A stretch of DNA of 60,947 nt, counting the filler, from Sphacelaria rigidula (lineage: Eukaryota): the NCBI GenBank assembly GCA_964200075.2. It is 3 parts of 3 records of this genome, joined end to end, with 100 filler letters (N's around TTAATTAATTAA, not from the genome) between each part and the next. Parts side by side here need not be neighbours in the genome. Positions count along the whole stretch, not along the records: positions 1 to 20,251 come from CAXNAA020000552.1; 2 more parts are not named here. One strand, 5' to 3'. The notes below the pieces were generated by a model. The model did no database searches and was not told the origin of the DNA. It worked only from the letters and a program-made list of their open reading frames with translations. The translations under genes and the position numbers were made by a program. Positions within the stretch are counted from its first letter, which is position 1. Each line of letters opens with the position of its first letter. Below, one piece after another: positions 6,012 to 47,104 of this stretch.

Positions 6012-6282
6012 TGTAACGCCAGCCAGAAGAAGAACTATTGGATCACTGCTGTTGAGAGACTTCCCAGTCTCACTGGCCTCATTTTCAGTTGTCAGCCTTT
6101 ACAACATTTTATTATATCCGGAGTTCCCTTGCAGGTACAGCCTCCTAGACCCGCAGGATATCAATATCGTGTCCCTGCCCGTTATATCCACAATCCTCCC
6201 AGAATCCTCCAGAACCCCCGTGCACCCGGTCATTATCCAGACCATCACTACCAACTCAACGTAACGGCGTAATTTCGTCACA
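6012..6282. repeat. Possible LTR (5' LTR of the gypsy element or a solo LTR)
   Basis: TGTAACG...CGTCACA termini just upstream of gypsy gag; no partner copy or TSD seen. Confidence 0.4.
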
Positions 6283-6480
6283 GGAATAAGATAGAAGGAT
6301 CGGAACTGTTAAATTGTCAGGGCTTTTAATATAGAATGCTACTGTTGTAAAGGCAGTCAGTGGAGCAATGAACGCTATGTCCGACGTCTCCCCCTGTGTG
6401 TGCACAACAAGGACACGAGTTTGCCATACCCCAGTTAAGGGAATGTATGAGACATCAAACACTCGTAAAGACCTTCTTGG

Positions 6481-6852
6481 TGTTGAGAAAGCCAGTAACA
6501 ACTGAGCTACCCAGTAAGCGCTGAGTCAGTAGCTCAGTGGTTGTTGGCCTTATCAACAAAAGCTAGGCAAAGTCCGGAGTTCGATTCTCACCCGTGACAC
6601 ATTTTTCTTTGTCAATTGATCACGGTCAGGAAACCCCCGATAACACTCCTTGCAGACCTCCGATGAATATTATTCCGGGCAAGTGAGCAACGCGTTGGTT
6701 ACAGGGGCTTCAACCCTGGGATGAAATCCAACGTCGTCGCTTAACAGCTAGACGGACTGCGTTCATTAGCTTTTATGTTGACGGAGACAATAACCATTGA
6801 GCTTCTTAGTCAGCGCTGACTGAGAAGCTCAGTGGGTCAATCCTTCTCAACA
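6481..6852 (+). mobile_element. Non-autonomous element with palindromic terminal repeats and tRNA-like Pol III boxes (copy A)
   Basis: Self-palindromic TG...CA repeats at 6481-6558 and 6776-6852 centred on AGCGCT; A-box TAGCTCAGTGG 6530-6540, B-box GAGTTCGATTC 6577-6587, T-run ~6602. Confidence 0.8.
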
Positions 6853-7028
6853 CCAAGAAGGTCTCCACGACCGTTTGAAATCTCATACATTCCCCTACGT
6901 GGGGTGCGGCAGACTCTTGTCCTTGTTGTGCAGACACAGGTGGAGACGTCGGGTAAAATCAACGATGACAAGAACGCCCCTCAAGTTGCGATTTGATCTT
7001 CTTATAGCCGCAACATCGTCCTTGCTGG

Positions 7029-7030
<2 letters not shown>

Positions 7031-7084
<54 letters not shown>
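7031..7084. repeat. (TG)n microsatellite
   Basis: Direct observation. Confidence 0.98.
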
Positions 7085-7086
<2 letters not shown>

Positions 7087-7121
7087 CAGTAGTGGTGACG
7101 GGGAAATCGCCCTGCTTTTCG

Positions 7122-7432
7122 ACGACAATGATTTTGTGAGATGCAGAGACCAGAGTAAGATTGAGAGCGAGAAGCGGTCAAATAATTAATGAAGTGTTTC
7201 AGTTCCGGAATGCCCCTCCACGAGGCCTGATACACTTTCTGCAAAAGCTTGCCACTGAAGCCTTTAATATCCCTGAGTAGGATATAGTAGGATGCGATGT
7301 GTAGCTGTAAGCACACGACAGTGTTACAGGCAAAGAAAAGCACACAAAGAATGAAAAATTGGCCAAGCTAGAACGAATAGTAAAACTCACCCTCAATCAG
7401 CACTGAATTCTCAATTTTACCACAGTATTCTT
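7122..7432. mobile_element. MITE-like repeat, diverged inverted copy of 59371-59676
   Basis: Shared internal blocks (GCTTGCCACTGA, ATCCCTGAGTAG, GGCAAAGAAAAGCACACA, TGGCCAAG) in reverse complement. Confidence 0.7.
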
Positions 7433-7532
7433 CAACGTGTTCTGCAGCACACAAAAGCGCTTCCCGTTCAAAAATAGAGGCAGAGAGAAATCAATATTTG
7501 CATTCGTCAGCACCACAGACAAGAGAAGATTA

Positions 7533-7780
7533 TAGAGTGATGCTGCGATAGGGTCAGCACTTTTACGGCCTGAGAGTAGAATTGTTAGGAACCCTTTATC
7601 TCATCCAAAACACGACTTTCGAAATAGGTGAGAGTACGCCAGGTTTTTCTTCCAATTTGCTAGGGATATCCCGAATGAATTTGCAAACGGGGATACCCTG
7701 ACCCATATTCTTGTGTAGTTCCTAATTTTAGGAACCGTTTTTGGCCCCAAAAGTGCAGACCCTATCGCAGCATCACTCCA
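7533..7780. mobile_element. Tc1/mariner/pogo-type MITE with TA TSD
   Basis: TA-TAGAGTGATGCTGCGATAGGGTC ... GACCCTATCGCAGCATCACTCCA-TA; relatives at 9750-9865 and 57406-57663. Confidence 0.85.
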
Positions 7781-8154
7781 TATCAGCCAAGATGCGGCAA
7801 TCCTGGGCACCTCGATTTTCTTCGGGGGACTGTGTAGCAATAAACCGCTTCCTTCACGTGACAAATTGGGAATGTGCTGGTAACATGATGCCAATCTGTC
7901 CAGCGACTAATCGCTGAGCGAGAACACACAAGGGACACGGGCGAAGAGCTTCCTCTCTGCCGTTGCTCCTCCGGTAGTTTCGTCATCGACACGCGCGTAC
8001 ACCGCCTTCATTCGGTGCACCTATCCACACGTGCGTAACTGTGCCAAACGTTTTTGCGAATATGCTTGCCCTTGGCACAACTGTTTCGCACAGAACCTGG
8101 ATTTTAGTTGCCCCACTTGAGCCTCATTTTCGTGTTCATTTCCATTTTTGAGGA

Positions 8155-8430
8155 TCCTCTGCTATTATGATGGATATCTCTGATGAATGTTTATACAATA
8201 AATGAATATATATATATCCTATATGGATATGTATCACGATAATACCAGACAAGAATCCACATCTATGGTGGATACCCATAGTAAACGTCGACATCTTTTT
8301 ATGGGATTCCATCACGATGAACATGGATACCCCAGAGGGGTATGGATACCCATGTCCATGGATAATGGGTGTCAGATCCATCGTGGACATCCCAGACGGA
8401 TATCCATGATCGACCTGATATCCATCCAAA
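8155..8430. repeat. Degenerate repeat rich in ATGGATAY/RTATCCAT motifs, in the spacer of the large inverted repeat
   Basis: Repeated atggatatc/atggataccc/atatccat motifs in both orientations. Confidence 0.55.
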
Positions 8431-9354
8431 TTATCAGTGTAACACACACACCGTCAAAGAAAATATATGTAAATAGTGCAAAGTCAGCCCTATATTTGCA
8501 CCGAACTACTTTCAACAATCAATTGTCAAGAATGGGGTTGAACGCGAAAATGAGGTTCAAACGGCATGAAATGGTGCCGAACAGTTACACCAAGGGAAAG
8601 CATCTTCCACCCAAACAATCTGTAGCACTTTAGCAGGTGTGGATGGGTGCACGGAACGAATGCGGCGTAAACGCGTGTCGATGACGATACCACCGGAAGA
8701 GCAACGGCGGAGAGGAAGCTCTTCGTCCACGTTCTTTGTGTGTCCTCGTTCGGTGGTTCCCAATCGCTCGAGAGATTGGCATTTGTTACCAGCAAACACT
8801 CAATATTCAATGTGCCGGCAAATCGTATAATATTGCTGCACAGCCTCCCAAAGAACATTGGGGTACCGAGGGGTGTCGCCTCTTGCCTGTGGAGCTCACC
8901 AATGCGAAGATCGATTTCTCTCTGTCCCTCTTTTTGGACAGGATGCGCCTCTGTGCGCTGCAGAACACGTCGTTGAAAAAGCAGGGCAGATTTCCCGTCA
9001 CCGCTACTGTTCTTTGTCACACACATGCCAGCGTTGCGGCAATAAGAGATCCAACCGCAACTTGGGGGGAGTGTTATTCATCGTTGATTTTTCCCGACAT
9101 GTGTACTTGTGCGTGCGCGACTAGGACAAGGCCATGCTACACGCCAGTTGGGGGGATGTATGATATATCAAACACTTCTGGAGACCTTCTTGTCATGTGG
9201 AGTGAAAACAGATACCTCTGGCGGTGACCAAACTATTGCAGGCGTGACCCAACATAGGGGTGCCGCCATGCTGTAATCTGGAGCACCCGTTGCGTGGGTG
9301 TGTGTGTTTTTCCAAACCTTGCACACGTCGGACAGATCAGGTCATGTCAGATCG

Positions 9355-9931
9355 TGAAAGAACGTGGAAATTCTTCATGTGGCGTGATATCTCGAGAAGA
9401 TGCACAGGGCTAGCACGAGGTGGCGGTAAAGCACGGTTGCTTGTCGAAAATACTGATATTGGAAATTGGCGCTGGTGTGGCCGAGAATCTCAGTGAAGAG
9501 GGTGAAGGCGAAAGATAGAATGGTAGGGTGTGGGAGCAACCCGCGAGTACCCTCGGGTCAATGCGCTACGCTAAGTTGTTGCTTATGGGAATATTCTTAC
9601 TTCTGAGAATCCTAGGGTTTTACATTAACCCTACAGAGTTCTAGAGAAGAAAGGAAAGAAAACCCTAGAACTTTACATTAAACCGACAGAGCCGGAAGTT
9701 CCGCTAACAATCTTAGAATTGTTGCAATCCTCTAAGGATGCGGAGGTTGTAGAGTGATGCTACGGTAGGGGTACAGAAATAATTTCTGAGGTTAAAATTG
9801 TTAGGAGCCCCTGAACCAGACAAAATTTCGCGAAAAAAGTGCACCCCTACCGTAGCATTGCTCTGTACTGCTATTTACCCGATATGAGCGACTATCGAGA
9901 AAACAGACTGATAGCAAATCTGCCTATATCG
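9355..9931 (-). repeat. Copia 3' LTR (contains a MITE insertion)
   Basis: Aligns with 15773-16229 from TGAAAGAACGTGG onward; right end approximate. Confidence 0.9.
9750..9865. mobile_element. Internally deleted MITE inserted in only one LTR
   Basis: TIRs TAGAGTGATGCTACGGTAGGGG / CCCCTACCGTAGCATTGCTCTG; absent at the matching site GGTTGTACTG in the other LTR. Confidence 0.88.
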
Positions 9932-10043
9932 ATGAATGCTACGGAGTGCGCCCCCGTGACGGAAGTTTTCTACAGAGAATACTAAATATGCACGCTGACG
10001 AATATTATAACCGATGCCCTGACCGTCCGAAGAAAAAAGAAGG

Positions 10044-10165
10044 AAAGGCGAAGCAAAAATACTCAGAATGCAGCCGTCTTTACGCTACACACAAAACGTG
10101 GTAGAAAAGGCGAAGCAAAAATACTCATGATACAGACGTCGTTACGCTACGTACACAAAAAGTAG
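10044..10165. repeat. Two ~60-bp tandem copies in the copia 3' non-coding region
   Basis: AAAGGCGAAGCAAAAATACTCA...TTACGCTAC repeated twice. Confidence 0.75.
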
Positions 10166-10192
10166 AACCACGAAGAAAAGCTGTAGAAGTCC

Positions 10193-11640
10193 TCAAGTTG
10201 AAAAATGGTGTCGTGGTAGCTTGTCCTGCTGGAGGTCTGTCCCCCTGAGGACGGCCGCAAGCATTGCCGTGAAGAGAAGCCTAGCCAAGAACTTGGTGAG
10301 GATGCCGCTGAGCTGACCCTTCGTGAAGACGTGGTCGATGGTGATCTTGTCTTCGGTGATATAATCTCGAAGGCCGGCGAACCTGATCGCGAGATCTTTA
10401 TTGCTCCTGCTGTTGTACGAGCCTTCTCCCGCGAGTAGTAGGGTGCCCTTGTTGTCGCAAAATATGCGGGCGCTACGGAAGGTCCTCCATCCGAGCTCTT
10501 CGAGGATGCCGCACAGGTAAAGGGCTTGTTTTGCGCAAGAGCTCATGGTAATCAGCTCCGCTTCGGTGGTAGATTGGGCTGAGATTTTCTGAACGCTAGC
10601 CGAGAAGTGTATGACACCCCCAGCAAAGAAGTAGATTCCTCCCGATGTAGACCTAGCCTTTTCCGGGTCGCCCGTGCTTTAAGAGGCGTCACAGAACCCG
10701 GTGAGCTCGAAGCTGCTGTTCCGGCTGTAGGTGATGTGAAGGTCAGGGGTGTCGCGCAGGTATCGCGGAATGCGTTTCACGGCCCCGATGTGTACTCAGG
10801 TTGCCTTGCCCATGAACCGTGTTGCCTGTGACGCTACGAAGCAGATGTTCACGCGGGTACACGGGTACAGGGAGATGAGAGACCCCACGATGCTCTGGTA
10901 GTCGGGGGTGTCATCCTTGTCAAGCGGCACGCTGCCTTCGGGCTACGCCGTTAGCTCGTTGCCGATTCCAGGTGTGTGCACTGCGTTGCAGTTGGACATG
11001 CCGCACGTTTTCATTAGCGGCAATACGTAGGGCATGCTGACGGTGCCGAGTTGCTTGTCCTGGATGATGTCGATCCCCAAGATTCTAGTGGCATCGCCAA
11101 AATCTATCATAGAAAACTTGTCCATGAGTGTTTCCAGGATTTTGGCCACGATTGCGGAATTGGGTCCGGTGATGAGGAGGTCGTCCACGTACAGAGAGAG
11201 AATGATGTAGTCGTCTCCGGTGCCCTTGACGTATACGCACGCGTTGCTCACGTTCGGTTTGAAGCCAAGTGCTCGCAGATCGTCAATGGTGCTGTTCCAT
11301 GCTTTTGGTGACAGCCGCAGCCCGTAGATGGACTTGTGCAGTTGCATGATGAGCGGTTGCCCCCGCGAGTTCTTCTTTTCGAACCCGGGTGTCTGCCGCA
11401 TGTAGACTTCCTCCTCGAGCTTCCCGTTGAGAAATGCCGTAGAGAAGTCCATGGCTGAGACGCTCCATCCGTCGGCAGCAGCGATGGCAAGAAGCAGACG
11501 TTGACTCTCGATACGGCAGACCGGCGCAAGTGTGTTGCCGCAGTTGCTGCCGTGCCTCTGCGACCAGCCCGTTCCGGCGATTCTGCCTTGAAATCGCCCA
11601 TCCATTTTTACCTTGAATACTCAGCGTGAGCCGATGATGC
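10193..11640 (-). pseudogene. Copia RT / RNase H remnants
   Basis: MDFSTAFLNGKLEEEVYM, LHKSIYGL, LYVDDLLITG, IFCDNKG motifs. Confidence 0.92.
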
Positions 11641-11644
11641 TATG

Positions 11645-12053
11645 TGTTACGGCGGGTATCGGCTATATATGTGCAGTAGGTTTTATTCCATTCGCATATT
11701 GGTGTTGTGTTGCATTTTGGCGGGCCCCTGGCCCCCCACAACTTTCAGCTACCCAGTCACTGTCGTTTAGCTACCCAGTAGCAGCACCTAATAACAAAAG
11801 CTATCAGTCAACACTTGGAGGTAACTCGCTTGCAAGCAAGTCAAGAGCACTTCCCTGCACGTGAAAGTGAGTCTATGTTATGCATTATGATTTAGTGCTG
11901 GTTTGGACTCGAGGGTCTGTGAGCCACGAGCTGGAGAGTTACTCCACTCGACTGCACTTATTCATTACGGCCGGCCGCTTGCTTATTGCAACCCCCGGCC
12001 CGGTGTGTTCCTTTAGAGTGATACCCACGTAACTTCGTGGCCAGTCCATCACA
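11645..12053. mobile_element. Solo LTR of another retroelement inserted in the copia RT
   Basis: TATG-TGTTACGG...CCATCACA-TATG (4-bp TSD); removing it restores the frame PPGHSIIGSR*VFKVKMDGRF. Confidence 0.85.
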
Positions 12054-12182
12054 TATGGCCTGGAGGAACTGCCTTCGGAGGGACCAGCTCGAAAACCTGG
12101 AGGTAGATGAAGCTCTGGTGCTCCTTCCGGGCGGCCGTCAGCCATTCCACAGAGTGAGGCGAGGCTTACCTCCTTGAAGGTG

Positions 12183-13460
12183 TTAGTTACAGGGATGGCC
12201 ACTGGAGAAGTGACCTTGTGTAGGTCCACAACGCTGATGTAGTGACTCACTTGTTGCATTAGCGAGTACGACTCTTGGCGTGCAGCGAAGTCCACGGCAA
12301 GCGCCAGCTTGGTTAGGGCCGGATAGAGAAAAATTCTTCGCGGCGGTAGCCGCGGGTTTAGGTGATGATGATGTTGCCGATCGTAGTTGCCGCGTAGAGC
12401 CGAGCGGTGCTTCGTTCGAGTTGTCTGCTGCGTCCAACTTGCTGATGCCGTTGAAAAAGTGGCCGTTGGTGTTGTCGTTGATGATACTGTCATCGGCATT
12501 GTTGCTGTCCAGCGCGACGTCCTCATAGATTGGGTCGTCGCTATCATCTTGCCCCCGAGCGCCGGTTGTGGTGTAAACAGCGACCGGCGGCGTCTCTATG
12601 AAAGTGACGTTGCGGGTGCTGATGACTTGCCCTGTGTGGCGGTCATAGATTCGGGAGGTAGGCTTATCGTTGTCGTAGCCGATAAGAACTCCTTCGCGCG
12701 CCCTAGGTTCTAGCTTGCGTAGATGCCCCTCATGGTGGACGAAGGCACGCGCCCCGATGGTGCGGAGGAAGGATCGATCGGCGTGCTTGCCGAACATCCT
12801 GTAGTAGGGGGTGCTCCCGCCAATAGTTTTGTTCGGCGGGCGGTTGAGGAGAAAAACGTAGTGGCCGCCATATTCCCCCAGAGGGACTTTGAAACCGCTG
12901 CGCCATTGAGAACGTCACCGGACCACGTCCATGATTGTGCGCCCGTCGCGCTCGCTGAGGCCAGCTTGCTCCGGCGTATTGGGCGAGCTGAACTGTTGGA
13001 AGATCACGGTGGACTTGTAGTACTCGCCGTAATAGCCGGCGATAAATTCGCCGCCACCGTCGGCCCATAGGTGCTGAGTTCGAAGTCCCAGCGGTATAGC
13101 CAAGTCTTGCACTTATTTGACGAGGATTGTGAGCGCTTTATCCTTGGTGAAAATGAAGTAGACGGCTTTGAGCTTGCTGTAGTGGTCGGAGTACTTCGTC
13201 ATGTACCTGAAGTTTCCACGCACCGGGGGCGTCACGGGTTCCAATAGGTTCGTACCGACCGATTGCAGCCTTTCGGAGATGATGGTTGAACCCGGCTTGT
13301 TTCGAATCAGCTGTCTGACGCCCTTGTTGATTTGGCAAACCTCGCTCGAGGTCAGCGAGTCGGTAAACTGAACACCCGTCTCCGCGATGTCCCGCGCCAC
13401 CGACACAGTGCGCTCGGTGGGATCTCCCAGGCGCTGGTGCCACGTGTTTGCCCCCACCGC
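12183..13460 (-). pseudogene. Copia integrase region remnants
   Basis: WHQRLG, DGGGEF, SPNTPEQAGLSERDGRTIMD, FLRTIGARAFVH..KLEPRAREGVLIGY. Confidence 0.9.
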
Positions 13461-13793
13461 CGGCATGCCGGTAGCCGGTTGCACCGGCAAAGGGGAAGTT
13501 AAAGTGGCTGGCAACCCCGACGTGGCCGTCAGTGCCGGCGTTGTTGCTGTGGAAGCTCTAGATGCCGCTGTGGCCCCGCTACGAATTAGACGTGAGGCCA
13601 CTGCTNNNNNNNNNNTCCGATCGGCAGTGTATGTCCAGAGATGACTCTAGTTGGAGAGGCTGCCTGCGCACGGGTCTTTATTGAAGGGGCTAGCTTGAGA
13701 TCGAGATAATCGATAGCGGGGCAGTCGATATGTTTTCGAAGTAGAATCTCGAACAGTGCGACGTCCAAGTATGACTGCTTGGCGACAACCGTG

Positions 13794-15560
13794 TTAACCC
13801 ACTTTGAGTGCCGCCGTGCCTCCCGAAAGCAGGTGACGCCCTAGCCCCGGTACGTTTACGGCCGGCAAGTAGATGTTATAGGTCGTGCCGCGGTCGTCGA
13901 TGGCGCTCACGGTGACAGTGGCCATGCTGACTCCGGCGAGAGTGTTGTTGCCGGCAACGACGATCGTCACCGGCGGGTCGAGCCGGTTGAAGTCGGACAT
14001 GCGCGATTCGATATCTCTAATGAGGTGGCTGTCGACGAAGTGTGACGAAGCTCCGCAGTCCGACGCCATGGTGAACTGGATTGGGTCTGGGTCTGGTGTC
14101 GAAGAGCTGGCTGCCAGGAAAGAGTAGCCAATGCCGGACGGGGGGGGGGGGGGGTACGGGGGCGGAATGTAGATTGTTATACGGTTTAGTCGTCGCTGAT
14201 GGCGCGGGCGTAGCCGCTGCCGCTGGAGCTGGGGGTGAAGCTGTTGCTGTAGTCGTACAGCCCACGGTGACAGCCGGGTTGGTCTGTCCTGAGTTCGATC
14301 TTCCGCCACTCCGACGTCCGTTATTGTTGCCGCGGTTCCGGCCTCCGCCACCGCCGCCGCCGGCGTTGTTGTTGTGGTTGTTGCTGTTGCTGTTGCTGTT
14401 GTTGTTGTTGTGGTTGTGGTTGTTGTTGTTGTTGTTGTTGTTGTTATTGTTGTCGTCGTCGCCACCATTGCGACTGGCTCCGTCGGTCCCGTTAGAGCCG
14501 TCGTTCTTTTGCCGTTGCTGCTTCATGCAGTCGACGTTGTCGTGGAGATGCGTTACGTGGTAGCTGCACGACAAGTTGCTTCTCCGGCCAGATGTGGATG
14601 GCGAGCCAGCGTCGTGATCGTTTTGCAGGATGAAGTAGGATGATTTCTTGTGTCTAGGCCTATTGCAGTGATCGCACATGCCCCGAAACGATGGAGTCGC
14701 CGTCATAGCGGACTCGCGCCATTTTGTGCGCGATGGCGCCGACGATTCACCGCGCGCCACGCGATTGGCGAACATGTTCCGAGCAGTGATCTCGATCTCT
14801 TTAAGCGTTATCTCGGGATCCCTCTCCGCCGCACAGCGAAGTGTCTCGTACTCACCAATCAGGCCCTCGAGAATGAGATCCTGCATGCGGGCGTCCGATA
14901 CGGGCTCGTTGATCTGCTCGAGCTCGTCCCGCTTTTGATGCATGGCCAGGATGTACTCGTACGGGTCTTGATCGGGCGCCTTAGCATAATCAAAATGCGC
15001 CGTCGTTGTGAGGAAAAAATGAGGGGTGCGTTTTGTTTAGAGCAGTCTACGCGGCTTGACCGTTCGGCTTTTGACCCTCGCGCGCGGCAAGGATACTTAT
15101 GAAGCTGTTGGTCGCTCCCTTGGTGGACAGCAGGAGGATGCTGAAGAGCTGCCTGTTATAACCATCCCAAGCGTCAAAATCTGATTAGTTGCTAATCGAC
15201 GGATGGGTGAACAGGTCGTCGGTAAGGATTGTTGGCGTGGGGATTTCCGTGAATCGCCCGCCGGGCAGGCCGCCCTCAGCTCCGATGGCCTCGGTTCTTC
15301 CGGTCCTCCCGAAGTAAGCGCTGGCGCCGGTGTCGCCTTCTGAGCCTCTCGTCCTGCGGGTTGAGACGGTTGGGCTGGTCGCAGTCCTGCAGAATCCTGC
15401 GCTCGTGAGTGACGGCGGGGCGAGACTGGCCGTCCAGAATCCAAGACTTTTCGCGATGACGAAAGTCAGCCGTTGCGCGGAGTGTCCTCCGCCACGGCAC
15501 GAAGTGGTGACCATCGAACTTGCCGATGTTCCTGATGAGTTGACAAGCCGCCGAAGTGGA
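13794..15560 (-). pseudogene. Copia gag-protease remnants
   Basis: LILEGLIGEYE (UBN2-like), degenerate CCHC knuckle, SDCGASSHF protease motif. Confidence 0.85.
14365..14460. repeat. (GTT)n-type trinucleotide repeat in copia gag (poly-Asn on the minus strand)
   Basis: Direct observation. Confidence 0.95.
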
Positions 15561-15758
15561 CTCTCCCATGACAGGCACTGGCGGTTGAACTAGAAGCAGT
15601 CGAAGATGGAGATGGTCTCTCGCCGAAGTTGTTCTAGACGAAAGTCTCTGGGGAAATGCGGTGGTCCTCGGAGGTTCTCCCTCGGAGGTGCTCCCTCGGA
15701 GGATGTGGCTTGAAGTGACAGACCTAGAAAAACGTCGATGCGATTTGCTGATCAAGGT

Positions 15759-15772
15759 CGAGACTCATAACC
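15759..15772 (-). promoter_or_regulatory. Copia primer-binding site, half-tRNA(Met) type
   Basis: Minus strand GGTTATGAGTCT directly follows the LTR CA; complementary to a CAU anticodon loop (cf. GGTTATGGGCCC of Drosophila copia). Confidence 0.75.
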
Positions 15773-16229
15773 TGAAAGAACGTGGAAATTCTTCATGCGG
15801 CGTGATATCTCGAGAAGATGCACAGGGCCAGCACGAGGTGGCGGCAAAGCACAGTTGCTTGTCGAAAATACTGATATTGGAAATTGGCGCTGGTGTGGCC
15901 GAGAATCTCAGTGAAGAGAGTGAAGACGAAAGATGGAACGAGAGGGTATGGGAGCAACCCACGAGTACCCTCGGATCAATGCGCTACGCTAAGTTGTTGC
16001 TTATGGGAATATTCTTACTTCTGAGAATCCTAGGGTTTTATATTAACCCCACAGAGTCCTAGAACAAAGAAATGAGAATCTTAGAACCTTGCACTAACCC
16101 GACAGAGCCGGAAGCTCTGCTAACAATCTTAGAATTGTTGCAATCCTCTAAGGATGCGGAGGTTGTACTGCTATTTAATATGGGCGACTATCGAGAAAAC
16201 AGACCGATAGCAAATCTGCTGTTATAACA
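15773..16229 (-). repeat. Copia 5' LTR
   Basis: TG...CA, homologous to 9355-9931. Confidence 0.92.
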
Positions 16230-18668
16230 AATCGGGGTCGGCTCATTTGGGGCATAGATCGTGACCTGTCCGAGGTGTGTTATCAACTGTCCACGTTTGT
16301 CCGATGGTGATCTGTAGAACCCGCATGACCCGTACATGATCGCCCAGTGACAAGCTGTACGACCTACGCCATACACACGCGTTCATGTACAACTGATCTG
16401 CAGAACTGTGTCATCCGCACCACATCATTACATAGTTGACATCTATACAACTCGACTTATTCAATGCAGCAGGTTGTCATACACCCGTACGATTCGCATC
16501 CATGTATACCAGAAGCTACCCCTTAACTATGGATCCTGAATCCAGTATACAAGAAACGGTTTCCCGCACCCGTAAGATTCGAATCCAGAATACAATGAAC
16601 AATTTTGCAGTATATTTCACCTTCTAACCTGCATGACCCGGGAACATCGTGCATGTCCACAAGTCAGTAGGTTGACAGTGTCAGCCTGGGCACATGGAAC
16701 ATGAAGCTCGTATATTTCTTCCGAGTCGTTATACTGCAGATGTGCACATATTTTTTCCAGGGCACTTATCTCTGCATGTCAAAAGTTGAGCCAGGCTAGT
16801 ACGACGGTGTTGAACAGCGTGGAGAGCTTTGATTTGACTTGACTTAGAGCAGGGCTCCTCACGTGGTCCCCCGTCGTCGTACTCGACTGGCCCGACGCTT
16901 GAATTTCGACGTGCCACGATCGTTGAATTTTGCAACGTGTAACGATAAGTGGTCTGTTTTTTCCCCCGAGGATCTGTAATGTCAGAGTTTGTCCACAACA
17001 AAAACCTGGACCCTAAAATCTAGTGTGCAGCCTCAGAAAAAAAAGAAGTTGACTGAAAAGCTAGGCTTTTACTTGTTATGCTAGCACGGGTTCTGTGTGC
17101 ATGTGACCCTTCATTATTTTCAAGATGATTTTTTTTCAAAAACCGTCCTGGCATAATAAGCAAACGCTTATTAGAAGCGCACCCCTACCCTTGAATCACA
17201 ATCCTCGCCCAGGACTAACTAGTGACGTGTACGGGTATCACTGTGGAAAATTGATCTGCTCGCATGCTCAACACGGTGTAGGTGTGGAAGAAACGGAATA
17301 TACCGCGAGCTCAGGAGCGAGGTCATCTCTCACAAGAAGCATCACGATGATGACAGCCGCCCCCATTCGCTTCACTCAGTCAGAAACCACAGCAGCGGCC
17401 TCTGAGCACTAGCATTAGCAGCGCAACAACAACGTCAACATCCGCAGAAGGGTAGCCCGATATGTTTGTTGTTGAGTCGGCGGGAAACAATGATAGCACT
17501 AGACCCAGAGGGTTGTGGTTCGTGTAGTAGATGAGACGTATGTTCAGTTGTTCCAGCGGCAGTACGGACGACTGTTTTCGCATTCCCTCGTTCAGGGTGC
17601 GCGCGCACTCACGCGTAGCGGGAGAAAGAAGAAACGATATGTTGCTATATGCTCAATTGAGTCATCATGACGCTGTTCAACCAGCGTCTGACAAATATTA
17701 CGCGTGAAGAGTCCTCAACGTATACATACTGCCAGCGTTAATGAAGCACGGATACCTCCCGCACGCGTTCCCGACGACCAGCCGTATGACCTGTGCGATC
17801 TGTGGTTGATCTGTATCTGTATGACGCGTTTAACCTACACACTTCTCGGTTGTTGACCTCTAGAATCCAGTCGCTTCGTGCACATATGCTGATGAACGAT
17901 ATGTATGGCATTGTGAATCGTACAAGTACGCTTCATGGTGATCTGTATGACCCGAGAATTCGTACGAACCTCACATTGTTGTTTTGTATGATCTATTGAT
18001 CTGTACACAATGTCCTTGGACACACCTGTGTGATCCGAATTAGGTGTCTCGCAACGCCAACAGCAACCAACAGCGGATTCTCGAAAATGGGGTTGAAACA
18101 AAATGAGTTTAAACTTTTAATCCGTGCTTCCCCTGACCTAAATTTATGTCAAATGACTTTCATACGGACGACCTCATCCCTCCCGACCTCCCTAAACCTG
18201 TTTCGGGGGATTTCTACCCTTCCGTTTCCCTAGAGCGTATGTGCGAAAGCATACTTTTGCCTAGATTTCGGGGTGAAAGAAGGACGTTTTTTGGCCCAAA
18301 AATCGTGCTTTGGCACATACCCGCGGAAGGCAATAAATCCCTCGAAATAGTTTAAGGGAGATCGGGAGGGATGGGGTCGTTCACATGAAAGGTATTTATC
18401 ATGAATTTGGGTCAGGGAGAACACGGCTTTTGAGTTGAACCTCATTTATTTGCTTTTCAACCTCACTTTCAGGAATCCACTATTAACCTGTGTGTCCTCA
18501 TAACCCGTACAAGATACGTCCCTCGTGATCGATGTTACCCGGATCACGAGTACCTTTCCATGACTGGTTGCACTGTGCCATTTGAATCGTGTCCTCCTGT
18601 GTGACCCCGGCTGGTGCGTCCACATATACCGAACGGTGTAAACCGCCGCCCAGAATAGACGGGACGAC

Positions 18669-24213: not shown

Positions 24214-26610
24214 CTTCATGTTTGGGCTGTGTTTTGGCAAGTTCAAGAAAAAGGAGGGTGGGCTTCTATATTTCATGTCTATGTCCGGGCTGTGTTATGA
24301 CAGGTAAGCTTCTCTATTTTATGTCTGTATCCGGGCTGTGTTATGGTATGTTAAATAAACAGCAGGGTTAGCTTCTCTGTTTCACGCCTATGTCCGGGCC
24401 GTGTTATGGTAGGGTAAATAAAAAGCAGGGTTGTCTTCTCTATTTCATGTCTATATCCGGGCTGTGTTATGGTAGGTTGGAGAAAAAGGAGGGTCAGCTT
24501 CTCTGTTTCATGTCTATGTCCAGACTGTGTTATGGTAGTGTAAATCATGAGCAGGGTTGATTTCTCTGTTTCATGTTCATGTCCGGGCTGTGTTATGGTC
24601 GGGTGAATAAAAAGCAGGGTTGTCTTCTCTATTTCATGTCTATATCCGGGCTGTGTTATGGTAGGGTAAATGAAAAGCAGGGTCAGCTTCTCTGTTTCAT
24701 GTCTATGTCCACACTGTGTTAGTGTAGGTTAAAGAAAAAGCAAGGTTGATTTCTCTGTTTCATGTTCATGTCCGGGCTGTGTTATGGTCGGATAAATAAA
24801 AAGAAGGGTTGGTTTCTCTATTTCATGTCTATGTCCGAGCTGTGTTATGGTAGGTTGGAGAAAAAGGAGGGTCAGATTATCTATTTCATGTCTATATCCG
24901 GGCTGTGTTATGGTAGGTTGGAGAAAAAGGAGGGTCAGCTTCCCTGTTTCATGTCTTTGTCCGGGCTGTGTTATGGTCGGTTAAAGAAAAGGCAGGGTTA
25001 GCTTCTCTATGTCACGTCTATGTCCGGGCTGTGTTATGGTAGGGTAAATAAAAAGCAGGGTCAGCTTCTCTATGTCATGTCTATGTCTGGGCTGTATTAT
25101 GGCAGGTTGGAGAAAAAGGAGGATCAGATTCTCTATTTCATGTCTATATCCGGGCTGTGTTATGGTAGGTTGGAGAAAAAGGAGGTTAGCTTCCCTGTTT
25201 CATGTCTTTGTCCGGGCTGTGCTATGGTCGGTTAAAGAAAAGGCAGGGTAAGCTTCTCTATGTCACGTCTATGTCCGGGCTGTGTTATGGTAGGTTAAAA
25301 ATAAAGCAGGGTTAGCTTCTCTATGTCATGTCTATGTCTGGGCTGTATTATGGCAGGTTGGAGAAAAAGGAGGGTCAGATTCTCTATTTCACGTCTATGT
25401 CCGGGCTGTGTTATGGTAGGTTGGAGAAAAAGGAGGGTTAGCTTCTCTATTCCATGTCCATGTCCGGGCTGTGCTATGGTCGGTTGAATAAAAGGCAGGG
25501 TAAGCTTCTCTATGTCACGTGTACGTCCGGGCTGTGTTATGTTAGGTTAAATAAAAAGCAGGGTCAGCCTCTCTATTTCACGTCTATATCTGGGCTGTGT
25601 TATGGTAGGTTAAATAAAAAGCAGGGTCAGATTCTCTATTTCATGTCTATGCTCGAGCTGTGTTATGGTCGGTTAAATGAAGGGCAAGGTTAGCTTCTCT
25701 ATTTCACGTCTATGTCCGGGCTGTGCTATGGTCGGTTGAATAAAAAGCAGGGTTAGCTTCTCTACGTCACGTATACGTCCGGGCTGTGTTATGGTAGGTT
25801 AAATAAAAAGCAGGGTTAGCCTCTCTACTTCACGTCTATGTCCGGGCTGTGTTATGGTAGGTTAAAAAAAAAGGAGGATAAGCTTCTCTATTTCATGTCT
25901 ATGCCCGAGCTGTGTTATGGTCGGTTAAATGAAGGGCAGGGTTAGCTTCTCTATTTCACGTGTATGCCCGGGCTGTGTCATGGTAGGGTAAAGAAAAAGC
26001 ACGATTAGCTTCTCTATTTCATGTCTATGTCCGGGCTGTGTTATGGTAGGTTGGAGAAAAAGGGGGGTCACCTTCTCCTCTCAGTGTACATGTCTGGGCT
26101 ATGTCATGGTCGGTGAAATAGAAAGCAGGGCCAGCTTCTCTATTTCACGTCTATGTCCGGGCTGTGTTATGGTAGGTTGGAGAACAAGGATGGTCAGCTT
26201 CTCTATTTCATGTCTTTGTTCGGGCTGTGTTATGGCAGGTTAAAGAAAAAGGAGGGTTAGCTTCTCTATTCCATGTCTATGTCTGGGCTGTGTTATGGTC
26301 GCAAAGAAAAGGCAGGGTTAGCTTCTCCATTTCACGTTTATATCCGGGTTGTGTTATGGTCGGTTGAAGAAAAAGGCAGGGTTAGCTTCCTTATTTCATG
26401 TCCATGTCTGGGCTGTATTACGGTCGGTTCAAGAAAAAGGCAGAGGATTCTCTAGTTCATGTCTCTGTCCGGGCTGTGTTATGGACGGTTAAATCAAAAG
26501 GAGGGTTAGCCTCTCTATTCCATGTCTACATCCGGGCTGTGATCTGATAGGTTCGAGGAAAAGGGGGGTTATCTTCTCTATTTCATGTCTGTATCCGTGC
26601 CGTGTTGTGG
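24214..26610. repeat. 63-bp tandem satellite, about 37 copies
   Basis: Unit ~TCATGTCTATGTCCGGGCTGTGTTATGGTAGGTTAAATAAAAAGCAGGGTTAGCTTCTCTATT. Confidence 0.97.
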
Positions 26611-28379
26611 GAGGTGGAAAAAATGAAAAAATGGAAATTAAAAATCGAGAAAGGGGGAAATGTAGAGAAAAAGAGAAGGAAAACACTAATATGGAAGGAA
26701 AAAAAAGAATGGCTAAGGAAAAGGAAGTAGTAAAATCAGGGAAAAGAGCCCATCTTCGGTAGATCATGTCTGTATCCATATTGTGTGTTTCTGGGGGGAA
26801 AGAATGGAGTTGTTCGATATTTTTCATGTTGTGTCCGTTGGTCCGGGATTTTCTTTGTCTAGTGGCGGTCCCTGGTATATGTGCGGTGACAGTCTGTACA
26901 CTTGTCTACGTTTTGGTGGCTTGTTTACAGCGCCGTTGCCACTCGACGCCAAGCCTTTCGAGACGGAGCACCGTTTCTACTCTTACTAGAGACACCTTCA
27001 ACATTCCGGCGCTCATTACGTTTCTTCCTACATTACACAAGAACATTTTACATATCGTATCCTCGTCCTGTTTCGCCGTCTCTAGCCGCCATCTATCTCC
27101 TAGTACAACCATCGTTTTCTCCCTACTGGCTAATGCAACAAACGATTTTATGTCATCTTCGTTCACGTCCCGCATTTCATCCTCTAGCACGTCCCGTTCC
27201 TCCTTGTATAGTTCACATTCTGTCACTATATGACTTCTGCCCTCTATTCCCTTGCCACAGAGGCAGTTCCGTGCATCTACTTCCTCCTCCTTCCGACCAC
27301 TAGCATATCCTTTTTTGTTTTTTGGCAGGTACAGGTCCCCCACCCGAAATCGCAGTTTTAGATTATTCGCAGCGTTCATTGGGCCATGCAGATATGTTTC
27401 CATCTCTCTCTCAACCCCCCGTATATCTCCAGGTGTTCTTCCTCGTCTACCTTGCGTCTGAGCGCTTCTCTCTCTCTCATCTCTATCATATCTCTCACTT
27501 TTGCCTTGTACCCCACGCCTCCATCTATGGACAGTATTTCGTCTTGATTTCCTCCCATATCTTTCCATACTTTGTCGACTTCTCGATTCCACGTTATTCC
27601 AGCATACCCTTGCGCACCTTTCTTCCATACAGCCCTATCAGCTATGGCTGGCAGTCTCTTTATCTGCATGTTATTTACGCTATATTGTCATCGCACTTTC
27701 CTCATGTCTCTGTTTGTTTTAACTGAGAGCATTCCCAACTCTGCTCTCAATGCTGTATTACTCGTCGTCTTCGAGCGTCCGAGTATCTTCTTAGCTGCTG
27801 CCATCTGTACTGTTTCCAATTTCTTCACCAACAACTTCACGTTCCCCTCTCATACTTCTCCTGCATATTCCACCTTTGATACGATCACGTTCACCAGGAT
27901 ACACCTTTTAGTCCCAGTGTCGAGGTGCGGATCTCTGGGGATCACGTACATCCCGCCTAGCTTTGCCCCAACCTTCTCTATTACTTTGTTTATATGTGCT
28001 TCCCAAGAACAGTGTTTCGAGATATCTACACCAAGGTATGTATACTGGTGTACAATCGGCAGTTCCTCTTCTCCCCACTTCCATTTGAACTCTAACATGT
28101 GTTTCTTATCTTCGTGACGGACGAGTACCGCGCAGGTGTTTACGCTCGCTGTCACTCTCCATTCCCTAGTGCATTCTGCACATCGTCTATCTGTTTGTGC
28201 AATCCTTCTGCTGTTCCTGAAATCCTCACAAAATCATCTGCGAACATCGAACCTCGTATCAGAGATCTTCACCCAGACTCCTTGCTTTGCTGCTTCTATT
28301 GCTAGATTCAAGTCATTCATGAATACCTTGAATAAAGTGGGTGATAACGTACGTCCCTGTGCAACTCCTTGTAAGATAC

Positions 28380-28548
28380 CACACCTTGGACAACATATGG
28401 TCAATGGTTCAATAGACAAGAAACGTACTGCATTAAATATAGACCTATTGCGACTATTGTCGGCCGGCAATAGTTGCAATAGGCCTATACTTTATGCAGT
28501 ACAATTTTCGTATATTGCAACTATTGACCATATATTGTCCAAGGTGTG
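28380..28548. mobile_element. Foldback MITE (whole element is a hairpin), ~8-bp TSD, inserted in the LINE RT
   Basis: CACACCTTGGACAA...TTGTCCAAGGTGTG; arms pair to the centre GTCGGCCGGC; flanks TAAGATAC / TAAAGTAC. Confidence 0.88.
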
Positions 28549-30272
28549 TAAAGTACCAAAATATCTCGATATTTCCCCGTCTAGCACCATGGCACTTTTG
28601 GCACATTCTGGCATCTTCCTTTACCATCCTCCAAATCTTTCCTCTGACCCCCGTTCCCCACAGCTTTTTCCAGAGCCCGTTCCTCCATACTGCGTCATAA
28701 GCCTTTTGCACGTCCAGAAAGAAACAGTACGTTGTTAGCCCGGTGTCTTTCCCACCCTGAACAATCTTACCTGGTGTCTACACACTGTCTACGCAACAAC
28801 GGTTTGGTCTGAAACCTACTCGTCCCTCGCTGATTTTGTCTTCCTTTTTTAGCATCGTTCCTACTCCATCATTCAGAATCTCACGGAACGTTTTCCCTAC
28901 CGCCCTACCGTGTTCAGTAGCGCCATCCCTCTATAGTTTCCTGGGCCAGCCCGGTCTCATTTTTTGGAAATCTTGACTACTACTCCTTTTCTCCGCCTCC
29001 TGGGTGGCTACTCGTTTTTCCAGATCCAGATCCAGTTACACAGCATAACCACCATGGTAATCATTTCTTCCCTCCCGTAATCAGATATTCGTTCACGATT
29101 CCGTCTGCCCCTGGTGCCCTTTTGTTCTTGAGTCTAGCAGCACACTCCTTTACTTTCTCTCTGGTGAACTCTCGCTGCAATTCTGTCGAGCCACTATCCT
29201 CACATTTTGACGTCTCTACGTTTGCTTCTGCCCACTCGTTGACCTCTTTATCGAATTCCGTGTCGAACTTCGTGTCAGTTTTTGGTGTTCCCAGTTTACG
29301 GTAGTACTCGACTAGCACTTCTCTCTTCCCCTTCGAGCTACCGACCATTTTGCCGTTCTGTGCCCGTAGCGTGGCTATCCCCTTGTCCACCTTTCTTGCC
29401 TGCTTTTTTTCCATCACCCCTTTCATCCCTGCCCACATTTGTGTCATCCCGCCATCGGAATCTTCACTTGTGTTTTTCACTACATCTTCCCACACCCCCT
29501 TCTTTTTCTCTGTACCATAGTTTTACTTCCTTTCGAGCTTTAGTAGACTCCTCTCATCCTCCCGTACGTTTTACTCGACACGCATCTCGCGTGGGCCTCC
29601 CTCCTCACTCTTACAGCCTCTTTTACTTCCTCATCCCACCATTTGACTGCTCTGTTGCATACGATCAGTTTCTTCCACATGACTTTACTCGCTGTGTTCT
29701 CGACCAGCTGCTCCCATCCCTCTACAATCTGCGTTCCTGCCCGACTTCTCTCCATTGCGGTATCAACTGCACCTACGCGTTCCAACAGTTCGGAAGAATT
29801 CACTGCATTTTTGGCCATCTCTTCTTGGAGCTCTTGCTGTTTATCTCCCAAATCTAGTTTATCGATTCTTCATTTGTACAACTTCCTACCCCGCCTATTT
29901 CTTTCGACTCTCGCCTGTTGACTTTTCCCCCATGTTAGGCAGTGATATTTAGTTCTCCCGTCCTCCGGGGATACACGTACTCCCATGTCTTCACTATTTC
30001 CATTCTCTACCACTACATAGTCAAGAACGGAGCGTTCTCTCTCGTCTTTGCGGTTTCTAGTCCATGTCCATTGCGCGTCTGGCTTTAGTACGCTATCGTT
30101 TAGCGTCTTCATCTCGTTATTCTCAAGGAACTTGAACACTCCTACCCCGTTCGTGTACTCCTCGTATTTCCCAATGAGATCATCCGGTTGACCTGCTTTT
30201 CCTACCCTTACATTAAAATCTTTCGCTAACATTACTTCTCCTTACGTTTTATACTTGAGTATATCTGCTGCT

Positions 30273-30730
30273 TGTTAGATATACAACATATCCACTGAGC
30301 TAAATAGTCAGCGCTGACTAGCTAAACAGTCAGCACTAACCGTCTAGCTCAGTGGGTATGGTGAATATATAACAAAATTTCAACGGGGGCCCGAGAGCTG
30401 GTTACATTTATTGGACTACGGTGTTTACCCGAGGATTATCACCCCTCTAATCGGCGCTGCCCCAAGCGATTCGCCGGCTTACAGGCGGGAACATGTGTCT
30501 TCATCCTGACGGCTGACGATGTATACCATGCTTTTAGATGCGTATCCCAGACTTTTAGATGCGTATCCCAGACTTTTTCTCAGGTTGTTTTCCTTCTGCA
30601 GAAAAAAGCGTCGAGATAGTCTCGCAGGGATCGAACCCCGGTTGTACTTTTGTTAGATACATAACAAATTCACTGAGCTAAACAGTCAGCGTTGACTGTT
30701 GAGTTCAGTGGGTATGTTGTATATCTAAAA
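30273..30730 (-). mobile_element. Non-autonomous element with palindromic terminal repeats and tRNA-like Pol III boxes (copy B)
   Basis: Palindromic repeats 30273-30374 and 30651-30730; minus-strand TAGCTCAGTG then GGTTCGATCCC; flanks CTGCT / CGGCT; removal restores the LINE frame FGEVAADILKYK. Confidence 0.85.
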
Positions 30731-33700
30731 CGGCTACTTCTCCAAAGTTACGCTGAACATCGTTCACCCTACTCTTCGATTCTGGGGGCATATAGATGCT
30801 CCCCACGAAGAAGTCCTTCGTTCCTCGCTCTCCTGTTACCCTTATCCATATGCTCTCGTCGAATTTCGTGTCATCGATCACTTCTATACTGTCACACAGG
30901 TGCTCCTTGACTGAGAATCCTACTCCCCCCGCTTCCCTGCGCTTGGGTTTCTGTCCCTTCCGCTTTTCCTCCGTCCATTCGTACTCTTCAAGTTTGCTGC
31001 ATCCTTTTCCCGCCCCCTCTGTCTCCCATGACTCTTGAATTCCTACTGTATCTAGATGGCGCTTCCTTACTTGTTGGGCTATCTCTATTCTTTTGCGCTC
31101 GTCTTTGGCGGAGCCACACACGTTCCACGATCCTATTCTCAACTTCCTCTCCGAATCAATATCTGCTCTCTTGCGGGCCCCTATCATATTCTTGTGCCTC
31201 TTACTTCTACTTTCCCTTGCTTGATTGCTCTGGCCCTTGCCGGTTTGGTCTCTGCCTGGTTGATTCGGGTCGCTGTGTCTCCTCCCCTTCCCCTTCCGGG
31301 CATTTACCTATTCCTGCCTCTCTTTCCCTCCGTTTACCCGTGCACTACGTCTTAGGCTTATTATTCCGTGAGCAAAGCATACTCTCTATCCTACCTTTCT
31401 AACCCGTGCCGACACCTTACTTGTTTCTATCCCTGTCCACTCCTCGCTCGCGCTCTGATTTAGTGCGACTCCGAATTGTTCTCCCTTCCTTTCTGCATTT
31501 CCTGTTGCCAAACAGTATAATCCAACTCCATCGCATTTCTTTTTTACCTCTATTCTTGTCATGTCGCTACGGACTCCGAAGACCAGCCCTACTAGTACCT
31601 TACCCGACCACTCTTTACTACTCCATCCGCCCTTCCTTACCGTCTGTCTCTCGATCTCCTTCGAGAGAATCTTTAGCTTGTTTGTTCCAAGCGTATTGGT
31701 GGGATATAGTCCACGGGGGGATGACAATAGCGTACACTACTCGAAACTATCCGCACGACGAATCAGCATCGACAGGGAGGAGTTACAGCGACTTGTAGCT
31801 GAGTTTTAGAGGCCCCGGTGGCACAGAGGTGCACAGTACGCCGCAAGGTTGGGCTTGCGGCAAAAAGCCCATCCCAGGCTGATCACCTCACATCAAGTAA
31901 GTCGCACTTGCTTCCTCCCCGTCGAACCCTCAAATACCTCTCCGTGTCTTACTTCCCTGCGCGCAGTCACCGACACAGCGCTCTATACTGGCCTCATTTT
32001 GAGCTACCGTCTGCAACATATTTCAGAGCCGAAAAGCCCATTCATGGCGACCCTGCGTATATCTCTAGTCAGAGGGCCTCCATTTCGTCCTGGTTGTATC
32101 GTCGTGGGCGGTGCGTTTTGTTGAACGTATGGCTGAACACGCCCCCGCACAGGGTGGTTCCAGGCAACTGTGGCTCAACCACGAGTGGCTGCCAGCGTAT
32201 TTTAGATGAACACGACATATATATGTAAACAGAGAAGCTAGGGACCCCCCGAGAAGGGCGTCTTGCCTGCTTCTGGAAAGCACCAACGAACGAAGCACGT
32301 AAGGGTGCGCTATGTCGCCATTTTCCTCGGCATATGTAGCCACTCATATTCCATCGCGAGTGTGTGACCTAGCGGGCACACCTCTCAAATGCGCACAGCA
32401 AACGTGTTGGCGGTGGCACGAAATATTTCACATCTTGGTGGGCCATTTGCGCATTCTGCGGAGTCACGGGTCCTGATTCGACGGAGGCACAATTGCTCCG
32501 TACCTACGGCGGCACCGCCATACAACTTGGGCAAGTTTTGGAGACGCGCGCATTAGGTTGGGTAGGATGTCCATTGATGCTTTGCGCCAACCTCACAACC
32601 TTCCGAGTTTCAGCACTGGTACACACTTGTCACGCGCATAGGTGCCCACATCCCTTGCCCGACTTATCTCGTGCGAAAGCACCAGCGTCGAGCCCTCTCC
32701 ACTTATCTCTGAATCCCAACAACATTCGCGTGACTTTAGCGCCGATGCAACTCTAGTGTGCAATGCTAAAAGCTCGATGCGTGCCCAACCGCCGACGCAA
32801 CCACCGCGGGACGTGGGCGCTGGCAGCATGAACACTGTCAACTCGATATGAAAGGATCTACGTATCGGAGTGAACGGTGAACCTACGTTTTGTTCACGTT
32901 GCTCACGGTGGAATATGAAACGCGGAAGAGTGCCCAGGAGTTGGTCGCCCAGTGCCACAGTGTTCGAAACTCGTACCGTGTGATACAGTAGCCATCACGT
33001 GACGCGACGCTCTTGTTGCTAGTGTTGATGCTGACCCCATGTTTGTGTGTTTGTGACGCGCGCAGCTACTCATGAAACAGTAGTTCTTGGCCCAACACGT
33101 GACCATAAATATCCAAGAGTACCGTCGCACGCCGGGGTAAAAGGGAGGAAGAAGGGGCGAAGAAATCAAGTCCGCGGAAGCTCAACGTAGATCTATTGTT
33201 GCAGACAACAGGTTGAATTTGATTGACCGTCCCAAAGCGTTTATGACTTCGGGTTTCCCCCCAAATTGTGTGAGTGTATGTGACTGTAACTGTATGCACG
33301 AGTTGCACAAGACTTGTCCGGAGGTTCAGATGATCAGAGGTGGGGCTATCGCGCGAATCTCCGTTGAGAACGATCCCCCAACGACCTCCTACAGGAGGAA
33401 CAACCAACGGACAGCAATTGCACCGGGATTCTCCGCTAGCTAGTACTGTACTCGCATTGCACGGTGCTATGCCATGCGTTTGCAGGATCGAGGACCGGTC
33501 TAGTCGGATTGGGCACGCACCCCAACGGGACACGACCGGGCTTCGCGGTTTTGGGGATGGCGACGCAAGGAGTAGTGGCATTTGCGCGGCAGCGGTAATG
33601 ATGACGTCGGCTTCGCCGCTAACGGTCGGCCTACGGGCGTGTAAATTTCACCAAGGTGTGACTCCCTGCAACGTGACCTACAGATGGCGAGGTTTCCGAC

Positions 33701-40389: not shown

Positions 40390-40475
40390 GGCCGCGCCCG
40401 CTTAGTCAAGTGATACAGGAGACGCCAACTATGGAGGTCATGAGTTCGAATCCCGACAGATTCTTCTTTTTTTTC
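40390..40475 (+). mobile_element. tRNA-derived SINE-like remnant
   Basis: A-box-like TAGTCAAGTGA (40403-40413), GAGGTCATGAGTTCGAATCCC T-arm/B-box, followed by a T-run; no convincing cloverleaf. Confidence 0.55.

Positions 40476-40927: not shown

Positions 40928-47104
<6,177 letters not shown>

Follow-up and report, generated by a model that had tools for sequence, protein, structure and literature searches.

Three copies (A, B and C) of one repeated non-coding element, 372–458 bp in length, were found in the window, the whole 60,947-nucleotide stretch of brown-algal DNA that was analysed. Each end of the element is a palindrome of 76–80 bp made of two arms of about 39 bp, and the TG…CA ends together with a 5-bp target duplication are the marks of a retroviral-type integrase. 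We tentatively propose, at a probability of roughly 0.45, that the element is transcribed by RNA polymerase III (Pol III) and moved by Copia-type enzymes, in a manner similar to Helenus but without a primer site or purine tract. As a whole, the window is repeat-rich eukaryotic DNA, with Gypsy, Copia and LINE remains and one UDP-sugar pyrophosphorylase gene, whose closest named relatives are from brown algae (Ectocarpus, 68–69%; Choristocarpus, 65%).

6481–6852, plus strand: copy A, whole element, 372 bp, with a perfect 9-bp terminal inverted repeat, TGTTGAGAA…TTCTCAACA
30273–30730, minus strand: copy B, 458 bp, within a LINE endonuclease frame
60219–60665, minus strand: copy C, 447–448 bp

The ends of all three copies read TG…CA or lie one change away from it. 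The terminal motif is TGTTG in copy A and TGTTA at the left end of copy B, and copy C is of a TGTGA type with one change per outer end. The terminal inverted repeats extend over about 100 bp at roughly 70–80% identity. Copy B is bounded by a repeat (30268–30272 and 30731–30735) matching at 4 of 5 positions, against a background rate of 0.0175. Since a codon of related LINE proteins recurs on both sides of the element at an offset of 463 bp, or 458 + 5 bp, the interrupted LINE frame independently confirms that the duplication is 5 bp long. Copy C has CGGCC on both flanks (5/5; background 0.0012), which requires that the last base of the element was lost; alternatively, this base was changed and not lost, and the flanking repeat is GGCC, 4 bp in length. 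The TG…CA ends and the 5-bp duplication had been overlooked in the sequence-only reading of this DNA, whose observation of a shared core at a fixed spacing proved to be real.

No direct target duplication was found at the flanks of copy A.

6381–6480: host-repeat flank of copy A, an inverted copy of 6853–6952, identical at 85 of 100 positions

Since these flanks are inverted copies of each other, copy A was regarded as rearranged and devoid of a duplication. Its host is a high-copy repeat, which continues unbroken past 6479 in other contigs and from 9193 on, and one and the same host position borders both ends of the element, in opposite orientations. The flank pattern suggests that the symmetric ends underwent an exchange or that sequence was copied from one host arm to the other. 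The neighboring region at 6854–9192 is a nested fold-back with copy A at its left edge; its arms (6854–7038/9018–9192, 7435–7525/8880–8970 and 7784–8151/8526–8889) are 73–82% alike and other repeats are inserted in it. A very high-copy repeat at 6180–6283 ends abruptly at 6282–6284, with a summed contig depth of up to 117,000–122,000 in runs X1 and X3, and it was found in contigs of run X6 as well.

The palindromic ends of the three copies and their cores are as follows, where the head is the end with the complete promoter.

6481–6558: copy A head palindrome, 78 bp, axis between 6519 and 6520, fold z −6.19
6513–6526: copy A core, 14 bp, two mismatches
6776–6852: copy A tail palindrome, perfect core at 6808–6821, fold z −9.13
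30651–30730: copy B head palindrome, core at 30684–30697 with one mismatch
30273–30374: copy B tail palindrome, 22-bp core duplication (30306–30319 and 30328–30341), B-box decayed
60591–60666: copy C head palindrome, half of the core deleted and 60629–60635 left
60219–60284: copy C tail palindrome, core at 60231–60244, outer arm mostly deleted, B-box decayed

A conserved 14-bp core at the element ends, as had been described from the sequence, is indeed present: it is exact or carries at most two mismatches at five of the six ends and is halved at the sixth. The exact cores are those at 6808–6821 and 30306–30319, two mismatches occur at 6513–6526 and at 60231–60244, and only the left half is left at about 60629. 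With up to three mismatches allowed, there were 10 core matches compared with 2.32 expected, and 0 of 100 shuffles reached 10. For the four of the six ends that were folded, the z-scores were −6.2, −9.1, −10.1 and −5.0. Deletions or a duplication are located at or next to the core in three of the six ends, and the outer arm at the left end of copy C measures 19 nt versus 47 nt.

Contigs of the same family were used to examine the head of copy A. Since most of them bear the bases of the perfect core, the core is a family trait and it is the copy A head of the window that is mutated. At the left end of copy A, family contigs of run X1 have C in place of A at 6516 for 437 of 546 depth and C in place of G at 6525 for 846 of 898. 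Three runs, which are either unlabelled or of DNA by record or by guess, each have 18–21 contigs with the changed base at 6525, and the head is common to about 20 related contigs per run. The summed contig depth of the head in X1, which is not a copy number, is 544–869 as compared with 29 in the unique flank. The likeness of the family contigs continues into the element.

6607–6689, plus strand: copy A interior, common to many family contigs, with variation beyond about 6689

The X1 summed contig depth is 544–767 over this segment versus 133–225 at 6690–6779, and joints leave 6689. The interiors of A, B and C are unrelated by BLAST (best E 0.73), and these three copies, all of them old, are the only ones that were readable over their full length.

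The promoter elements of the heads are listed below.

6530–6540, plus strand: A-box of the copy A head, pattern match
6577–6587, plus strand: B-box of the copy A head, pattern match
6602–6606, plus strand: T5 run, possible Pol III terminator of copy A
30680–30670, 30638–30628 and 30607–30602, minus strand: A-box, B-box and T6 of the copy B head
from 60622, 60578–60568 and 60554–60548, minus strand: A-box, B-box and T-rich tract of the copy C head

The A-box at 6530, the B-box at 6577 and the T5 run at 6602 bear out the earlier description of a tRNA-type promoter pointing inward. The element is polar: in three of three copies, the full set of A-box, B-box and T-tract is found at one end. The B-box follows the A-box by 44–49 nt, and the T-tract is 81–83 nt from the axis in all three heads. 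The opposite end is an inverted copy of the promoter head in which 20–25 nt of the inner flank are repeated and the B-box is broken; on the inner side of the copy A tail, part of the head flank is kept with no B-box at the spacing seen in the head. The first base of the A-box is 10 nt from the axis and 7 nt after the hexamer in all eight arms of copies A and B, in agreement with the exact 7-nt gap between AGCGCT and the A-box noted previously. In copy C this distance from the axis is 13 nt (head) and 15 nt (tail), and in the metagenome locus L001 it is 9 nt. The outer half of each end had been considered an antisense copy of the RNA 5′ end, and it is indeed antisense to the promoter arm. A scan for A-box and B-box combined gave three pairs in the window, one per copy, versus 0.05 in shuffles; the scan pattern is close to the boxes of this family, and the count of three is valid for that pattern alone.

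The predicted RNA showed no cloverleaf with an acceptor stem (fold z −0.4 to −1.3), and Rfam at E values up to 10 gave only weak matches, to three microRNA hairpins and one lncRNA. In copies A and B, the A-box is followed by a 7-bp hairpin with TG…CA-like ends; the hairpin at the equivalent position of L001 differs in sequence. The two short listed contig pieces of X6 (RNA by guess) over the head, with depths of 5.5 and 2, are no evidence on expression.

The sequence-only reading had placed the start of a tRNA-like RNA of about 85 nt at 6523 and on the axis of symmetry. The axis is in fact between 6519 and 6520, which puts 6523 at 3 nt downstream of the symmetry center, and the start itself was deduced from the numbering of mature tRNA for an RNA with no cloverleaf fold. 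Position 8 of a tRNA is counted from its processed (RNase P) 5′ end. Since primary transcripts carry a leader, a start at 6523 based on such numbering is unsupported. This leader is 10.4 ± 1.4 nt in yeast with CA at −1/+1, and five Ts end Pol III transcription there, according to the available part of PMC13451320. CA is present at exactly −10 in the A and B heads, at the base with which the core begins (6513 in A); 6520, at the axis, and 6523 are pyrimidine–purine steps as well, so that all three are candidate starts. The copy C head has lost its −10 region. By analogy with the yeast spacing, we infer that Pol III in this brown alga may start at 6513, the first base of the core.

We compared the arms for conservation and covariation. 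Each arm consists, in order, of the half-core, a 3-nt spacer, the A-box, a variable segment and a terminal pentamer (YAACA or TCACA). Among the eight arms of A and B, the conserved blocks are the half-core (50/56), the A-box (81/88) and the terminal five bases (35/40), and the weaker ones are the spacer (13/24) and the variable segments (30/48 and 31/56). As expected from the earlier proposal, the core (0.89) is better conserved than the variable arm parts (0.54–0.62), but not better than the A-box. The core is one of three conserved arm blocks and is not uniquely conserved.

The variable segments are identical at 154 of 231 positions (67%) among the arms of one element versus 120 of 616 (19%) between elements; the permutation p of 2e-4 for this likeness is overstated because it treats the 12 arms of three elements as independent. 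Arms within one end agree at 76 of 107 positions and arms of opposite ends at 159 of 214, with two end-specific paired changes in A and none in B. Three arms of copy C agree while its promoter arm deviates, a tendency shared by B but not by A. RNAalifold on the six ends, three of which are broken, found compensated changes in 4 of 18 pairs with a covariation term of +2.01, which gives no support for covariation at the level of structure. The covariation anticipated for the arms was therefore seen in part: the arms change together within an element as sets of four, but not end by end. The idea that fold-back synthesis shapes each end gained no support, since arms of the same end are no more alike than those of opposite ends. 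The palindrome may owe its origin to fold-back at each end, but the arm comparison does not point to fold-back as the process that maintains it. When the head and tail palindromes were compared in direct versus inverted orientation, the matches were 57 versus 58 of about 78 in A and 64 versus 62 of 80 in B, and the inverted likeness extends 20–25 nt inward past the palindromes.

Since one intact promoter is kept across unrelated interiors, we infer that the element moves through RNA. Copia enzymes are suggested by the curated families of Ectocarpus, where Copia has 5-bp and Gypsy 4-bp target duplications (PMC12477816, MOESM3), and by Table 1 in the accessible text of that paper, which has no Ginger superfamily. 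We propose that Pol III would initiate within the core of the head, with the first core base as the probable start, and would occasionally read through the T-tract to the tail. The self-complementary RNA could then fold back and prime synthesis, replacing the absent tRNA-primer site and purine tract. Template switching among the arms would restore the outer ends and prevent the four arms from drifting apart, and the product would be inserted by Copia integrase. If the RNA begins at the core, the core might serve as a terminal redundancy of the RNA, comparable to the 18-bp terminal duplication of Cassandra RNA.

There is no purine tract at the inner ends, where 4–7 of 15 bases are purines at six of six ends. 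The GGTTATG primer motif of the window's Copia (at 15764), the one motif type compared, is absent from the elements, and the head flanks do not begin with TGG. The Copia in question is a decayed copy on the minus strand at 9347–16219; its LTRs agree to about 92%, and its primer site at 15764 reads GGTTATGAG. The missing purine tract and the absence of the tested primer motif argue against an RNA route, as do several other observations. Most transcripts of A and B would be expected to end at the T5/T6 runs about 20–30 nt past the B-box, and no run of at least four Ts that could define the RNA end follows the tail core. The inverted likeness past the palindromes is not a product of LTR replication, and the head and tail palindromes match no better directly than when one of them is inverted, which further weakens an LTR-like route. 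If the RNA route is true, LTR-type replication can run without a primer site and purine tract. A more specific version, which we consider doubtful, is that of a primer-free Pol III retro-parasite in which the 14-nt core at both RNA ends would provide the strand-transfer redundancy and the fold-back primer, the ends would be rebuilt in every cycle by hairpin copying and the insertion would be carried out by Copia integrase. Alongside SINEs and TRIMs, such a parasite would add a third means of linking a tRNA promoter to a retrotransposon.

A real possibility, although a less probable one than the Copia route, is that the element is a cut-and-paste miniature of a Ginger-like DDE transposase, with the promoter being a relic or a TFIIIC-bound insulator. 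The inverted repeat of about 100 bp would have come from a tRNA-derived head folded on itself, with two attachment sites per end, and template switching at hairpins in DNA replication would keep the arms alike; the deletions or duplication at or by the core in three of the six ends indicate that hairpin events do occur at the DNA level. The ends fit TGTNR, and the available parts of PMC2836005 (Bao et al. 2010) give Ginger repeats of 40–270 bp and 5-bp duplications for TDD-4/5, although most Ginger groups there have 4-bp duplications. This explanation accommodates the inverted likeness past the palindromes and has no need of a primer site or purine tract. Curators have also put the tag 'possible Ginger?' on Ectocarpus DNA5-N1_Ec32 (TGTTG-CAACA, 502 bp, 5-bp duplication); apart from this query, neither the summary table for Ectocarpus nor its curated notes name a Ginger family. 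What a Ginger-like origin leaves unexplained is an intact promoter and T-tract at equal distance in three copies with unrelated interiors. If it is true, a transposon end has been built from a working tRNA promoter, and such an end is undescribed in the literature searched.

Two further explanations are considered improbable, the second more so than the first. The palindromes could derive from a small linear DNA whose covalently closed hairpins were opened, through resolution by a telomere resolvase at the central hexamer or through a nick where the arm ends, in the manner of parvoviral hairpin transfer, before an integrase captured it. This corresponds to the hairpin-resolution role that had been suggested for the core from the sequence. 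A spacer-less palindrome with a conserved 14-bp center would fit, as would the same core and A-box in metagenome contig L001 and the 20–25 nt inverted segment inside both palindromes, which may be likened to the inner segment of parvoviral ends. However, arms of the same end should then be most alike, which they are not (76/107 versus 159/214), no resolvase or Rep gene was detected among the ten ORFs scanned, and the promoter is left without a role. The other explanation regards the copies as chance head-to-head pairs of tRNA-derived SINEs or decayed tRNA genes that are not mobile as a unit. The A-box, B-box and T-run are SINE-like, and a separate tRNA-like head with a loose A-box, a B-box and a long T-run but no palindrome, which the scan missed, is located at about 40403–40470 and is possibly a SINE or tRNA remnant. 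Against chance pairing, three copies share one four-arm layout and TG…CA ends, with a 5-bp duplication in two, and about 20 related contigs per run have the head. No unpaired arm was found elsewhere in the window with the arm profile, and neither ARAGORN nor Rfam detected a tRNA in the element. The clean 458 + 5 bp insertion in the LINE frame largely refutes chance pairing. DIRS/Ngaro (0-bp duplication in Ectocarpus), Helitrons (0-bp duplication) and Dada, which targets small-RNA genes in the parts of the literature available, were set aside.

Among known systems, the window element would work most like Helenus/TRIMp3, as judged from sequence features, yet it departs from that group in having no direct LTRs with both boxes and no purine tract. 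The Helenus/TRIMp3, Cassandra and Ajax elements described in the accessible text of PMC10886601 (Kojima 2024) likewise have a short non-coding body, TG…CA ends and tRNA-derived boxes. Helenus is 311–1263 bp long and its A and B boxes do not make a working tRNA; Copia-dependent fungal families share the 5-bp duplication, and Cassandra RNA has 18-bp terminal duplications (PMC10886601, available parts). Three LTRs of Helenus shown there have T-rich tracts just past the B-box, as does the window element. TG…CA ends with a 4–5 bp duplication were found in two of the three copies. Helenus has both boxes in direct LTRs, a primer site and a purine tract, whereas the window element has palindromic ends with the B-box outside them and intact at one end; neither a purine tract nor the tested primer motif was found. 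The parts of PMC10886601 seen contain no stramenopile family of Helenus, and 'Ectocarpus' occurs 0 times in its supplement.

The tRNA-derived SINEs are similar in their A-box, a B-box 44–49 nt further on and a T-tract, and an internal type-2 Pol III promoter as in SINE2 was recognized by sequence match. The window element has symmetric integrase-type ends and a fixed short duplication in place of the LINE-like 3′ tail and variable duplication of SINE2, its far end is an inverted head, and self-BLAST gave no match between the element and the window's LINE. Ginger1 and Ginger2/TDD share TGTNR termini and long inverted repeats, plus a 5-bp duplication in TDD-4/5, but they encode a transposase, which the window element does not, and most make 4-bp duplications at preferred targets; 'palindrom' has 0 occurrences in the text of PMC2836005 on which this comparison draws. 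In KolobokP, each end is a unit bounded by short inverted repeats, as in the window element; its termini are RR…YY with 3–5 bp duplications, and the accessible text of PMC9587614 does not describe the units as promoter-bearing palindromes.

DNA5-N1_Ec32 of Ectocarpus sp. 7 is a non-autonomous element of 502 bp with a 9-bp terminal repeat and a 5-bp duplication (Dinatale et al. 2025, PMC12477816, MOESM3). It has 103 copies (MOESM4), one of them with changing small-RNA levels, and it is unclassified and without a known partner in Ectocarpus. It resembles copy A in its TGTTG-CAACA motif and 9-bp repeat, and also the window element in its 5-bp duplication, size class and brown-algal host. The comparison is by description only, and palindromic ends and a promoter are absent from its one-line note; 'palindrom' and 'tRNA' have 0 occurrences in the main text of PMC12477816. 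DNA5-N1_Ec32 may belong to the family of the window element, in which case the element is in a library without its anatomy being described. Of the 393 families in the Ectocarpus summary table, 94, or a quarter, are unclassified. The core string is absent from the literature searched, and the layout of the element is not described in the titles and abstract openings that were searched, with most subscription papers and Repbase outside this scope. With its palindromic ends, the element adds a new variant to the integrase-moved repeats that carry a tRNA promoter. Such repeats disperse Pol III promoters and hairpins and could feed small-RNA silencing; to our knowledge, the algae in question lack DNA methylation.

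A metagenome scan returned one locus, L001, with a perfect 46-bp palindrome at the contig start and the same core and A-box. L001 shares with the window only this palindrome and one 30-bp low-complexity match, and the perfection of the palindrome may be a product of the assembler. Its core suggests that, if real, the primer-free type of retro-parasite would not be confined to the genome of the window. A diverged tandem repeat occupies 70–740 of L001 (blocks about 440 and 245 bp apart), with a B-box-like motif near 315. Two scans of viral contigs gave 0 and 5 core loci and a scan of prokaryote genomes gave 11; these 16 were dropped as chance or unrelated, since no more than 14 of 33 positions were paired outside the core and none scored with the arm profile. 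In L002, L006 and L010, from one Dehalococcoidia MAG and near contig ends, the 14-bp core lies in a palindrome about 30 bp long with a hairpin nearby. They are copies of a bacterial repeat without the long arm, which is probably unrelated to the element.

Other repeats were observed in the window. A 63-bp tandem array of about 37 copies and a diverged second array occupy 24303–26615 and 34211–34981, and an inverted single unit of the 63-bp repeat lies near 42606–42675. A 170-bp spacer-less palindrome (85%) at 28380–28548 fills a gap in the LINE protein match and has a partial copy at 54038–54135. The UDP-sugar pyrophosphorylase gene has a 240-bp hairpin (80%) at 51711–51944, with coding sequence of the gene on either side; this hairpin could be a MITE or a small-RNA precursor. 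Additional fold-back elements are located at 18069–18484, 36104–36324, 44943–45130 and 364–444.
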